Assembly: GCA_964594415.1 (NCBI GenBank)
Contig: CAZQLQ010000005.1
Location: 96 to 64,095, forward strand
Length of the DNA stretch: 64,000 nucleotides
Direction: 5' to 3'
Source of the DNA: an uncultured Candidatus Saccharibacteria bacterium
Lineage (GTDB): Bacteria > Patescibacteriota > CPR2 > UBA1875 > CAIMLA01
The translations under genes and the position numbers were made by a program. The notes beneath the pieces were generated by a model. It was not told the DNA's origin. It made no database searches and saw nothing but the letters and a program-made list of their open reading frames with translations. Positions 27,582-48,659 of this stretch are shown one piece after another. How positions within the stretch are numbered: position 1 is the stretch's first letter; every line of letters begins with the position of its first letter.

Positions 27582-27683
27582 ACAATCTCTTTATTTTTTT
27601 AGGAGTTTGGCCGACCCAGATTCTGGTTTTGCCTCCAAGAATACTTTCGACTTCCTTTTTAGGCCTATATTCAATAAAAATAA

Positions 27684-27705
27684 AACCCACGCAATCGCGT
27701 GGGTT
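27684..27705 (-). terminator. Intrinsic terminator ending the three-gene small-ORF operon
   Basis: aacccacgc-aatc-gcgtgggtt hairpin, then 'ttattttta' on the minus strand, about 30 nt after the stop at 27734. Confidence 0.65.
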
Positions 27706-27733
27706 AAATAATAGCTGTTCTTGTTCTTTTGTT

Positions 27734-27913
27734 CTAAGGGTTTATTTTTAACTTCCCTTGTAGGATTTCAGATAGAAAGTTTTCTATTTCTGTGAGGTGC
27801 TGTTTAAGCTTGCTAATTTTTATTAGCAATTCAATTAATTCTGATGAGCTAACTTGGTCTCTTGAGCCAAGTTTTTGTGCCCATAATCCTAGGGACACTA
27901 CTCTATACTTCAT
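27734..27913 (-). CDS. Small hypothetical protein (59 aa), third gene of a translationally coupled triplet. Not in the ORF track because it is under 60 aa.
   Basis: ATG at 27913 overlaps the TGA stop of the upstream gene (ATGA). Translated by hand: MKYRVVSLGLWAQKLGSRDQVSSSELIELLIKISKLKQHLTEIENFLSEILQGKLKINP. Confidence 0.45.
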   Translation of the reverse strand: MKYRVVSLGLWAQKLGSRDQVSSSELIELLIKISKLKQHLTEIENFLSEILQGKLKINP

Positions 27914-28179
27914 TTTAATCTCCCAATCTTATCTTCTTTGTCGCTGATTTCTGGTGGATCGTATTCATGAAAATGTTCACGTATCAACACCAGCATTTCG
28001 GGTATCTGTTCTTGTAGGAATTTTGTCATAGCAATGGTCTCAGAGATTATTTTGTCTGAAAACTCTTTTTTTGCAGTTTCTGAAAAATTCTCGAAGGCTA
28101 GGACCTTCTCTAAATGATTTTTCATAAGGAGAACGGCCTGTTTATATTCTTTTAAGGGCGTAAAGAACATTATAGTCAC
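27910..28179 (-). CDS. Small hypothetical acidic helical protein (89 aa)
   Basis: ORF with a 4-nt overlap with the upstream gene. Confidence 0.45.
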   Translation of the reverse strand: MTIMFFTPLKEYKQAVLLMKNHLEKVLAFENFSETAKKEFSDKIISETIAMTKFLQEQIPEMLVLIREHFHEYDPPEISDKEDKIGRLK

Positions 28180-28427
28180 CTCCCCCTGCTTGCCTGCGGT
28201 TCCTGCTTAAATGTGTTTGGATTATCTAGCGCTTTTTTGACAATACTTACTGCGATGTGGTTGCTACTTTCCCTTGCTTGAGATAATAGTCTCCCTAGTG
28301 CCTTTTTCTTCTCGTTTAGAGTCATTTTTGAGTTATTCCTAATTGTATTGATTTGATCCTCTAAAGCTTTCCTCGCCTGCTTTTTCAAAGAATCACCCCC
28401 TTTACGAATTATTAATGTGCAAGGCAA
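28176..28427 (-). CDS. Small basic hypothetical protein. The listed start is TTG. The likelier start is TTG at 28388, preceded by SD 'GGGGGTGA'.
   Basis: ORF. The SD and TTG architecture is conserved in the degenerate paralogous copy at 29640-29870. Confidence 0.45.
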   Translation of the reverse strand: MPCTLIIRKGGDSLKKQARKALEDQINTIRNNSKMTLNEKKKALGRLLSQARESSNHIAVSIVKKALDNPNTFKQEPQASRGR

Positions 28428-28500
28428 TATGTATTGAATTATTATAAATGCAATTTGTTTTAAGTAAAGGTGTTTTTTGTGAATTTTATTTGTTAAAATT
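28371..28500. repeat. Copy A of a ~130-bp duplicated segment comprising the gene 5' end, SD and promoter
   Basis: Aligns with 29821-29950: 'gcttgctttttcaaa..cacc.cc.ttacgaattattaatg.gcaa..atatgtatt.aattattataa...'. Confidence 0.7.
28441..28468 (-). promoter_or_regulatory. Putative promoter (TTTACT-N16-TATAAT) of the small-gene operon
   Basis: On the minus strand, -35 is RC of 28463-68 and -10 is RC of 28441-46. The block is duplicated at 29900-29927. Confidence 0.4.
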
Positions 28501-28536
28501 GATTAAACGAGAAATAATAATATCTGTGAGGCGCCT

Positions 28537-29565
28537 ATGGACAAAGTTGAAATCAACAAGTTGCTTGAGAGGTTTTATGAACAGAATCCGGACTTTCTTG
28601 ATTGTAAGGTAGAATTGATAAAAAGTGGTAACAATAGATCGACATATTTACTCGAATCAAAAAGCGGTAAAAAGCTAATACTCAAAAAGTCTCATGCTAA
28701 AAACGATCTTCCCTTTTCGAGTTTAAATGATGTCCGGGTTCAGACTTTTATCAAGTCTTTAGGTTATGATTTTGTGCCCGAAATAATATTCTGTGACAAA
28801 GGAAATGAATATTTCATAGAAGCCTACGTTGGTGAAGAAAATATTAAAGTCAATGATATGAGTGACGAGTTACTCGAGGTTTTTGCCAAACAGTTAGCCG
28901 AGGTTCATAAGCAGACCTTTAGTCAATATCAAGAGTTTTGTAAAAAAAATGATTTTGAGGTTCCTAAGGCTATATTACCGGAAGAAAGTCTGAAGATTTT
29001 TGGTTTTAACAGATTTGAAATTGTTGAAAAACTATGTGAAGACAAGGAGGTCGTTAACTGTCTTAAAGGTCAACTAAATGCAAATCTTGAATTATTAAGA
29101 AAAAATAAGACTTCTGTTGATTCTGCTCACTTATTGTGGGGCATAATCGGTAATGAAATGCGTTTTAGTGGAGATAAAATTTATTTTGTGGGTTGGGAGT
29201 TTTCGAGAGTTGGAAATGGTTCAGAACTTTCTTTCATGAAAATCCATTCCGGTATAAATGAAAACGTTCTCAAAAAAATAATTGCTTTATATTCAAAATA
29301 TAGCGGGAAAACAGAAGAAGAGTTATATGAAGAAATTAAAATTGAAGAGAAAATTACAAGAGTAAATGATGCTATCTGGGCTACGATGAAATGGTGTGAA
29401 TCGGAAACAGAAGAAGACAAGGAGAAATATAAAGAACTGACTTTTGAACGTTTAAATCTTACTAAATTCGTATTATTTTCATTACCATTTTGGTTTTCAT
29501 TTTTAAACCTCCAATCAGGTTCTGATTTACTTTCGGTAATCGCTTTATTGTTTGCAACTTTGTGA
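28537..29565 (+). CDS. APH/choline-kinase-fold phosphotransferase-like protein with substituted catalytic residues (putative pseudokinase) and a C-terminal membrane anchor
   Basis: Gly-rich region 'KSGNNRSTYLL', 'LILKK', hinge 'FIEAYVGEE'. The catalytic-loop-like 'LLWGIIGNEMRF' has no His or Asp. The Mg-site-like 'VGWEFSRVGNG' replaces the 'IDWE' Asp with Gly. The hydrophobic C-terminus is 'FVLFSLPFWFSFLNL...VIALLFATL'. Confidence 0.45.
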   Translation: MDKVEINKLLERFYEQNPDFLDCKVELIKSGNNRSTYLLESKSGKKLILKKSHAKNDLPFSSLNDVRVQTFIKSLGYDFVPEIIFCDKGNEYFIEAYVGEENIKVNDMSDELLEVFAKQLAEVHKQTFSQYQEFCKKNDFEVPKAILPEESLKIFGFNRFEIVEKLCEDKEVVNCLKGQLNANLELLRKNKTSVDSAHLLWGIIGNEMRFSGDKIYFVGWEFSRVGNGSELSFMKIHSGINENVLKKIIALYSKYSGKTEEELYEEIKIEEKITRVNDAIWATMKWCESETEEDKEKYKELTFERLNLTKFVLFSLPFWFSFLNLQSGSDLLSVIALLFATL

Positions 29566-29639
29566 ATTAAGGATTGTTTCAAGGTCGATTCCGATTTGTT
29601 TGATTTCTAAATAAAATTCTGTTGATATGTTTGACATTA

Positions 29640-29870
29640 ATCCCCCTATTCTTTATGCCTGTGCTCTAAATGCATTGGGATTATTGATAGCATTTTGAAT
29701 TAATCCAATTGCGATATGGTCACCATCCCTTTTTGCCTCGACCAACAACTTTTTTTAGTCTCTTCTTCCTTTAATTAAAGGTAATGTTCGTATCGTCCCC
29801 AATCTTCTTTATTTTACTTATTAAGGCTTCACGGGCTTGCTTTTTCAAAAAAACCACCTCCCTTACGAAT
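29640..29870 (-). pseudogene. Frameshifted, truncated paralogue of the 28176..28427 small gene
   Basis: The reverse complement encodes 'MKKQAREALISKIKKIGDDTNITFN*' and then, out of frame, '..LLVEAKRDGDHIAIGLIQNAINNPNAFRAQA*'. This parallels 'KKQARKALEDQIN...LLSQARESSNHIAVSIVKKALDNPNTFKQ'. Confidence 0.6.
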
Positions 29871-29950
29871 TATTAATGAGCAACAATATGTATTAAATTA
29901 TTATAATTTCTATTTCTTTCATGTAAGGGTATTTATTAAAATTTTTCTTG
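29821..29950. repeat. Copy B of the ~130-bp duplicated promoter/5' segment, a direct repeat of 28371-28500
   Basis: See copy A. It retains the SD 'gggaggtgg', the TTG, and the -10 TATAAT. Confidence 0.7.
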
Positions 29951-30004
29951 TTTTAATTTTCTACTGTTTTATAATTTAACAAATGTAATAACGAGAAGGA
30001 TAAA

Positions 30005-30196
30005 ATGGAATTTTTTACGGACAATACTCAAATAATTGTTACAGTTGTATTATTATTTGCAATTATATTTTCAGGGGTTTTAAATCAATTTTTAGTTAAA
30101 CATACAAGTAAGGCAATCTACAGCTTTTTAAGATTAGCCACAATTATTGTTACAGTTATTTGTATTTTATATAACATCTTTTTCTTATTTTCTTGA
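30005..30196 (+). CDS. Small two-TM membrane protein (63 aa)
   Basis: ORF with two hydrophobic helices. A terminator follows immediately. Confidence 0.4.
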   Translation: MEFFTDNTQIIVTVVLLFAIIFSGVLNQFLVKHTSKAIYSFLRLATIIVTVICILYNIFFLFS

Positions 30197-30240
30197 TTCA
30201 ATATTCTTAAGCGCTAATAATTTGTTTTAAAACAAAAAAT

Positions 30241-30271
30241 AAGTCACCTAATAAATAAGTGACTTATTTTT
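30241..30271 (+). terminator. Intrinsic terminator
   Basis: aagtcac-ctaataaataa-gtgactt hairpin followed by 'attttt'. Confidence 0.6.
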
Positions 30272-30291
30272 GGCTGGGGAGGAGGGATTCG
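30271..30291 (-). repeat. 21-nt direct repeat of the tRNA-Gln 3' end; att-site-like scar
   Basis: 'tggctggggaggagggattcg' is identical to 30455-30475. Even the preceding T-run is similar. Confidence 0.7.
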
Positions 30292-30454
30292 CAGCAGAGC
30301 TGCTTCTCACCGCTATCATGACTACTATCTTGTTATTGTTTAATAAGATTTTCGACAAATTGTGCTTCTAGCTATAAACAAAGTTTTGTTCATGTCGGTG
30401 GTCTCACCTGCCTCACAACAGAAAAAAGCCTCCCACGAATGAGAAGCTTTTTTC

Positions 30455-30529
30455 TGGCTGGGGAGGAGGGATTCGAACCCCCGAATGCCGGGACCAAAAC
30501 CCGGTGCCTTACCACTTGGCGACTCCCCA
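30455..30529 (-). tRNA. tRNA-Gln (anticodon UUG)
   Basis: RC reads TGGGGAG-TC-GCCA-AGTGGTAA-GGCA-C-CGGGT-TTTTGGT-CCCGG-CATTC-GGGGG-TTCGAAT-CCCTC-CTCCCCA-G-CCA. It has U1:A72, a 7-bp acceptor stem, anticodon loop UUUUGGU, a TPsiC loop TTCGAAT, and an encoded CCA. Confidence 0.85.
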
Positions 30530-48454: not shown

Positions 48455-48483
48455 GACTGTACTCCTACGTTTTATTAAAAAAA

Positions 48484-48503
48484 TCTTCGCGTAACCGAAG
48501 ATT
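48484..48503 (-). promoter_or_regulatory. Hairpin plus U-tract in the rplJ leader, about 30 nt upstream of the start (putative attenuator or L10-leader element, or glyA terminator)
   Basis: atcttcg-cgtaac-cgaagat stem followed on the minus strand by T8, then the SD 'aggag' and ATG. Confidence 0.45.
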
Positions 48504-48659
48504 AAAATAACTAAATTACTTTATCCTCGGTAGCAAATTAAGTCTAGTTGTGCTGACAGCTACTGTCTACGGAATATTTTATTTACAGAAATTCTCTATT
48601 TCTTGACTACAACAATTTATCAAAAATTTAATCTAAAGTCAATACTTTTAATCCTGTTA

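Follow-up and report, generated by a model that had tools for sequence, protein, structure and literature searches.

Two apparently old copies of a small gene with a conserved promoter and leader, one of them probably inactivated recently

Throughout the 64-kb stretch of DNA that we analyzed (the window), one block of about 130 bp occurs exactly twice, on either side of a kinase-like gene. We find it probable that this direct repeat marks two old paralogues with a conserved promoter, one of which was recently inactivated, and that the locus reflects ordinary gene-family turnover, not recent rearrangement. By this account, a lineage-specific small gene (about 65 to 70 aa, with a predicted three-helix bundle as its product) would be present in two old copies in the same orientation, 1.46 kb apart, and each copy would have a sigma-70-type promoter of its own as well as a leader of about 45 nt. 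An intact three-gene operon would begin with copy A. Copy B would have remained a functional paralogue during most of the period after the duplication, until a nonsense substitution and an additional A in a homopolymer inactivated it recently. The part held constant, namely, the promoter, the leader, the SD, and the first nine codons, would be what stands out as the 130-bp repeat, and it is most likely a shared cis-regulatory block, consisting of a promoter with an operator or leader control site and possibly serving divergent transcription too. We refer to the intact gene as sA and to the disrupted gene as sB. The features on which the argument turns are as follows.

28362 to 28500: repeat copy A at the DNA level, containing sA codons 1 to 9, the SD, the leader of about 45 nt, the -10 and -35 boxes, and about 30 nt upstream of these
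29822 to 29958: repeat copy B at the DNA level, in register with copy A
28176 to 28388, minus strand: sA, an intact ORF with an SD and a TTG start; 70 aa, predicted three-helix bundle, orphan
29653 to 29848, minus strand: sB, pseudogene paralogue of sA, 64 codons long once two lesions are undone
28537 to 29565, plus strand: the bracketed gene, for a degenerate APH-family kinase-like protein of 342 aa

The preliminary description of this locus reported a direct repeat, and the repeat is real. In a gapped local alignment, copies A and B share 109 of 140 columns (78%), with a score of 120 versus 26.3 ± 2.8 (maximum, 37) in 200 shuffles and a blastn E value of 1e-24. Two ungapped blocks make up most of the similarity, both in the same orientation: 28381-28422/29842-29883, at 83% identity, and 28425-28500/29884-29959, at 75%. 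The longest perfectly identical stretch is no more than 17 nt. The coordinates first given for copy B (29821-29950) were about 10 nt out of register with those given for copy A, and the offset between the copies is 1459 to 1461, not 1450. We confirmed that the SD, the TTG start (28388 and 29848), and the minus-strand TATAAT are in register in both copies and that the copies bracket the gene at 28537 to 29565. The fetched relatives and viral contigs contained no copies of the block. No inverted repeats bound it, as they would for an IS, MITE, or transposon, and there is no transposase or integrase ORF in 27582-30454.

Could the second copy be a collapsed or chimeric repeat introduced by assembly? 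The source is probably a metagenome-assembled contig, and nothing else speaks for this explanation. Repeats created by an assembler come out identical or near-identical, whereas here the best block is 22% different and synonymous sites are saturated. An assembly artefact, which had been named as what would refute the duplication, is therefore excluded by the divergence between the copies, and we give it virtually no chance of being correct.

We then asked how far the homology extends. On the minus strand behind copy B, residues 1 to 40 of sA are matched in one frame (z = 11) and residues 12 to 63 in another (z = 14); for both frames, 0 of 300 shuffles scored as high. The remnant reads MKKQAREALISKIKKIGDDTNITFN up to a stop in the first frame and ends in LLVEAKRDGDHIAIGLIQNAINNPNAFRAQA and a stop in the other. 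A tblastn search of the window with sA gave a second match at 29751-29659 (E = 3e-6). The frameshifted, out-of-frame remnant that had been described is present, and its disruption can be assigned to exactly two lesions.

29773 to 29771, minus strand: sB lesion 1, a TAA in frame at codon 26 (GAG in sA)
29756 to 29750, minus strand: sB lesion 2, an A7 homopolymer with one extra A (+1 frameshift); the frame is open to the stop once one A is deleted

With one A removed and the TAA read through, sB aligns with sA without gaps over 64 codons, and 26 of the 64 amino acids are identical. sB therefore shows both marks of a duplicated (nonprocessed) pseudogene, homology to an intact gene of the same genome and disabling lesions, and calling copy B a disrupted paralogue of the small gene was correct. 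The proposal that only a promoter and a 5' gene segment had been duplicated does not hold, since the protein-level homology reaches the small gene's stop codon. In all, about 315 bp was duplicated, comprising the small gene plus its upstream region (about 28186-28500 / 29641-29958).

Some features of copy B would suit a gene that still makes protein, either through a sequencing error or slippage combined with stop bypass or as a pair of short peptides of 25 aa and 31 aa. The frameshift is located in an A7 run and could be a sequencing error; the promoter-like site, SD, and start codon are intact; and the distal part of sB has its own TTG-initiated ORF of 31 codons. However, the TAA at codon 26 arose by substitution and cannot be put down to a homopolymer error; it would still disrupt the gene. 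TAA is also the commonest stop here: the 50 long ORFs use TAA 33 times, TAG 13 times, and TGA 4 times, and code 11 is therefore appropriate. Expression of the full protein would need two independent recoding events within 30 nt. We consider it very unlikely that copy B is still productive.

The codon positions of the two genes bear on the age of the duplication. In two in-frame blocks, sA and sB are identical at 46 of 56 second positions and at 19 of 56 third positions, against an expectation of 26% from composition for the latter. Over the repaired gene, the first, second, and third positions agree at 33, 50, and 23 of 63 codons, respectively. Synonymous sites are thus at about chance level and second positions are 79 to 82% identical; pooled pS reaches saturation, at 0.97, against a pN of 0.31, for a pN/pS of about 0.3. 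Because third positions are randomized and second positions are conserved, the duplication appears to be old, and both copies appear to have been kept under selection at the protein level. The disabling of sB would then be recent. Neutral decay since the duplication would not be expected to leave this codon-position pattern.

These observations conflict with the idea of recent flux at this locus, namely, that a recent segmental event copied a promoter and 5' segment, that the kinase-like gene was inserted or captured, and that copy B has been decaying ever since. That a direct repeat brackets a gene and that copy B is disrupted are both in keeping with such a history. Homologues of the kinase-like gene occur in unrelated neighborhoods, so that the gene is not tied to the small gene, and 300 bp away there is a tRNA-Gln gene that has an att-like 21-nt repeat. 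However, a recent duplication should have left near-identity that includes silent sites, as should an assembly repeat, and we found a best block of 78% with third positions at about chance. Saturated synonymous sites next to conserved second positions do not fit decay since the duplication, the homology spans the whole gene and not its 5' part alone, and sB carries two lesions only. Nor is there a second kinase remnant or any mobile-element feature. We regard a recent duplication as quite unlikely and favor the reading of two old paralogues, one of them recently lost.

The bracketed gene is itself a degenerate family member. Its 342-aa product has five homologues of 309 to 313 aa that are 30 to 51% identical to it, and two of these (P0005 and P0006) pass the Pfam APH model (PF01636), with 42.7 and 48.2 bits versus a cutoff of 23.2. 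The 342-aa protein itself has no Pfam match; its NCBIfam match to GntI kinase (E = 4.5e-8) is below that model's cutoff. Where the five homologues all carry WGD and D[WF]E, the window protein carries WGI and GWE, so that both conserved Asp residues, which we take to be the catalytic-loop and metal-binding residues, are replaced (by Ile and Gly). The stop codon of the homologues is aligned to TTT in the window gene, and because this stop has been lost, the ORF runs on for 29 hydrophobic codons (314-342, 29476-29562) that have no counterpart in the homologues. With both Asp residues and the stop codon gone, the label "pseudokinase" used in the preliminary description appears fair. The homologous genes adjoin ABC transporters or a PAP2 gene and have no sA-like gene nearby.

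Two alternatives would account for the position of the kinase-like gene between the two copies: its insertion between neighboring paralogues, or the duplication of a larger unit followed by remodeling. A tandem unit of 1.46 kb, composed of the small gene, its promoter, and the kinase, with later loss of the second kinase, is unsupported; to the right of copy B there is no remnant of a second kinase (best tblastn E = 0.14). Related genomes had been proposed as a source for the ancestral arrangement, and no relative with the same locus was found. Exact-protein lookups gave no match, and a Dus-based search of species-representative genomes gave no close relative. In two metagenome loci whose Dus is 60% identical, the CysRS-Dus pair and a nearby tRNA-Gln are kept and the island genes are absent.

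If the coding parts are so divergent, why is the repeat so conspicuous? We compared the noncoding DNA upstream of the two start codons, in which the following sites occur.

28441 to 28468, minus strand: promoter-like site of the sA operon, TTTACT-16 nt-TATAAT (10/12)
29900 to 29927, minus strand: promoter-like site of sB, CTTACA-16 nt-TATAAT (10/12), in the same register
28446 to 28441 (copy A) and 29905 to 29900 (copy B), minus strand: -10 TATAAT boxes
28392 to 28446, minus strand: most conserved core of copy A, from the -10 box through the leader to the SD
29853 to 29905, minus strand: most conserved core of copy B, 48/55 identical to the core of copy A

The copies are identical at 87 of 112 positions of the noncoding block 5' of the start codon, versus 19 of 56 third codon positions (Fisher p = 6.6e-8). 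The boundaries of the block were set by the alignment, which inflates this identity somewhat, but the whole intergenic stretch is still about 68% identical. Identity is highest from the -10 box to the SD (48 of 55 positions, 87%) and lower 5' of the -10 box (38 of 54). Codons 4, 5, 6, and 8 of sA and sB encode the same residues and already differ synonymously, so the conserved DNA ends at the start codon. Because noncoding identity is far above that of synonymous sites and stops at the start codon, the pattern points to a constrained regulatory region and not to a young repeat or a conversion tract, the case for selection being drawn from one pairwise comparison of two sequences. The 130-bp repeat would then be conspicuous because its noncoding promoter and leader are conserved above synonymous sites and not because it is young.

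A short gene conversion tract that homogenized the promoter and leader of two old paralogues, with no special constraint, would also yield a contiguous block more identical than the adjoining coding DNA. Conversion is also favored by the short distance between the copies and by their direct orientation. However, the four synonymous differences in codons 4 to 8 would require the tract to stop precisely at the start codon. Identity peaks over the -10 box, leader, and SD and drops 5' of the -10 box, as it would under constraint, and perfect identity nowhere extends beyond the 17 nt given above. Purifying selection on the promoter, leader, and operator is the simpler reading, and we judge gene conversion unlikely.

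Within the core, copy A contains the palindrome CAATA-TG-TATTG and two AATAATT(C) repeats. The palindrome is perfect only in copy A and imperfect in copy B, and the AATAATT repeats are spaced by 29 nt in copy A and 27 nt in copy B, so the copies do not obviously share a phased two-site operator. The 23-mer and 21-mer cores occur in the window at these two sites only, where 0 are expected by chance, and the 23-mer is absent from the viral contigs. Matches to the 21-mer in two genomes, of Ignavibacteriaceae and KSB1, do not extend past 21 nt and are attributed to chance. The leader RNA folds no better than shuffled sequences (z = +0.9 and +1.2), the repeat block has no Rfam match at the gathering threshold or at E ≤ 1, and we saw no convincing promoter/terminator pair on the opposite strand within the block. 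The regulatory nature of the conserved block, and any protein binding to CAATA-TG-TATTG or AATAATT, is put forward as a candidate interpretation. A more specific version is a tentative idea that we consider unlikely: the 55 nt that run from the -10 box to the SD would be the operator or leader of a lineage-specific circuit such as autoregulation by sA, and promoter B would be retained, and not debris, because it still has some function.

Two further observations concern the edges of this region. There is no terminator between promoter B and the kinase-like gene, and transcripts from this promoter would run antisense through the 3' end of that gene. At the right edge of the block, an in-register TTGTT(A/T) is a candidate -35 element and could serve divergent plus-strand genes.

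Copy A heads an operon in the order promoter, sA, 89-aa gene, 59-aa gene, and terminator, and the surroundings of copy B differ from it.

27910 to 28179, minus strand: operon A gene 2, 89 aa from GTG, or 86 aa from the ATG at 28170 (NCBI record)
27734 to 27913, minus strand: operon A gene 3, 59 aa, its start overlapping the stop of the preceding gene (ATGA)
27684 to 27705, minus strand: terminator-like hairpin at the end of operon A
29545 to 29637, minus strand: 30-codon ORF behind sB with an SD-like AGGGGGA, overlapping the extended 3' end of the kinase-like gene
30005 to 30196, plus strand: 63-aa hydrophobic ORF, divergent from copy B, an orphan without family matches

The 89-aa gene is preceded closely by the SD GGGGGAGG, and the structure prediction for its product is a helical hairpin (pLDDT 72.6). 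A homologue search with this gene matched only the gene itself, which makes it an orphan, and nothing behind sB resembles it (z ≤ 0). We considered the 30-codon ORF as a truncated 89-aa gene and rejected this, as no frame shows any similarity (z ≤ 0); the two have at most AGGGGGA and TAATG in common. The 63-aa ORF has the same position relative to copy B as the kinase-like gene has relative to copy A. Together with the 70-, 89-, and 59-aa proteins, it gave nothing above threshold in Pfam, NCBIfam, PADLOC, or PHROGs.

The sA protein is hydrophilic and charged. AlphaFold2 run without an alignment models it as a three-helix bundle (pLDDT 81.9) with helices at residues 3 to 17, 24 to 40, and 44 to 55, and we accordingly describe it as a predicted soluble three-helix bundle. 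No homologues were found in a word-indexed search of 5.8 billion proteins or in an exhaustive phmmer search of 1.84 billion representative proteins. A fold search for structural neighbors was uninformative (best E = 3.6). A match to Pfam DUF1542 was subthreshold (22.1 bits versus a cutoff of 24.3) and was not taken as membership.

The main value of this analysis is a correction: what looked like fresh flux is better described as an old paralogue pair whose regulatory DNA is conserved above silent coding sites. Identity by codon position can date such repeats from one sequence. The analysis also marks a small orphan operon with an apparently strongly constrained promoter and leader in a poorly sampled lineage, in which the nearest Dus is 60% identical. 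Duplication followed by loss of one copy is an ordinary event and opens no major question; the only mildly notable feature is that the promoter and leader are conserved well above silent sites.

Several known systems resemble parts of this locus. In Escherichia coli, the Ldr/Rdl and Ibs/Sib type I toxin-antitoxin loci form direct repeats of a few hundred base pairs, each with a small ORF, in which the promoter and 5' UTR are best conserved. The units described here are likewise direct, with a small ORF and a conserved 5' region, a likeness of layout. Unlike the short hydrophobic toxins of the Ldr and Ibs repeats, however, sA is a charged protein predicted to form three helices, and the folding comparison and Rfam search detected no structured leader or antisense RNA. 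Type II toxin-antitoxin operons are similar in having small overlapping or coupled genes behind one promoter. The interval from the -10 box to the SD, a frequent position for an autorepressor operator, here contains the palindrome CAATA-TG-TATTG, and the locus is near a tRNA gene, with copies duplicated and decaying, as is also seen for such operons. However, the 70-, 89-, and 59-aa proteins matched no toxin or antitoxin family significantly in Pfam, NCBIfam, PADLOC, or PHROGs, nothing identifies a toxin, and defense and phage libraries gave no matches. The bracketed protein resembles APH/choline-kinase-like phosphotransferases (PF01636) through its five homologues but differs from them in having Ile and Gly for Asp, in its lost stop, and in the 29 unrelated residues it has gained. 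A duplicated pseudogene pair is a further parallel: two same-strand copies with their own promoters lie within 1.5 kb, one intact and one disabled. This pair differs from an ordinary one in that the sA family is otherwise without homologues among the 1.84 billion representatives, in that sB appears to have spent a long time under purifying selection, and in that the promoter and leader of sB are still 78 to 87% identical to those of the live copy.

The kinase-like gene (28537-29565, plus strand) lies between copy A and copy B, the two copies of a repeat that carries a promoter, a leader and first codons. We found that both conserved Asp residues are gone from this gene, WGD having become WGI and DWE having become GWE. 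A change of TAA to TTT at 29476-29478 has also removed its stop codon, so that the protein gains 29 hydrophobic residues, and the extended tail overlaps a 30-codon minus-strand ORF behind sB, the pseudogene paralogue of the intact 70-aa gene sA. The following features belong to the repeat and its surroundings.

27734-28388, minus strand: operon of three genes (70, 89 and 59 aa), including sA
28490-28518, plus strand: TTGTT(A/T) and downstream hexamer at copy A
29181-29582, minus strand: 133-codon ORF, antisense, inside the kinase-like gene
29948-29975, plus strand: TTGTT(A/T) and downstream hexamer at copy B
30005-30196, plus strand: 63-aa hydrophobic ORF

The 63-aa ORF is divergent from copy B, as the kinase-like gene is from copy A. 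It apparently encodes two membrane helices and contains a 16-nt direct repeat (30031-30046 and 30142-30157), so that "IIVTV" occurs twice; it gave no family hits. At the right edge of the repeat, TTGTT(A/T) stands in register in both copies, and in each the second hexamer is outside the repeat: AATAAT after a 17-nt spacer at copy A and TATAAT after a 16-nt spacer at copy B. The copy A site came from the promoter scan, while the copy B site was read by eye and is below the scan criteria. These sites could be the plus-strand promoters of the two divergent genes.

On the minus strand, the starts and stops of the three-gene operon are coupled, and the operon has its own terminator. Helical structure is predicted or apparent for all three products. 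Full database searches found no homologues of the 70- and 89-aa genes, and a scan of the 59-aa gene against family libraries only detected none. No minus-strand terminator was predicted between 29650 and 28540. Therefore, any transcript from promoter B, the promoter-like site of sB, would cross the 133-codon antisense ORF, which is itself probably spurious.

A second repeat adjoins the region of the sA/sB repeat.

30455-30529, minus strand: tRNA-Gln(UUG)
30271-30291 and 30455-30475: exact 21-nt repeat

The repeated 21 nt are the 3' end of the tRNA, from the T-loop to the encoded CCA. The second, exact copy lies 184 bp downstream of the tRNA without a tRNA body, and a separate terminator hairpin follows each of the two copies. 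This looks like either a partial tRNA duplication or an att scar left by an integrated element that has lost its interior. Elsewhere in the window, an ordinary feature lies upstream of ribosomal protein genes.

48468-48590, minus strand: L10 ribosomal-protein leader (Rfam, 64 bits)

Finally, we considered the neighborhood of P0004, a homologue of the kinase-like gene, on two contigs outside the window.

L001, 6035-12652: P0004 neighborhood
L002, 5067-11684: P0004 neighborhood

Alongside P0004, the contigs carry an aminotransferase gene and two radical-SAM genes, one of which has a SPASM domain. Two ABC transporters and several small ORFs (43-47 aa) are also present, an arrangement that resembles a gene cluster for peptide modification.
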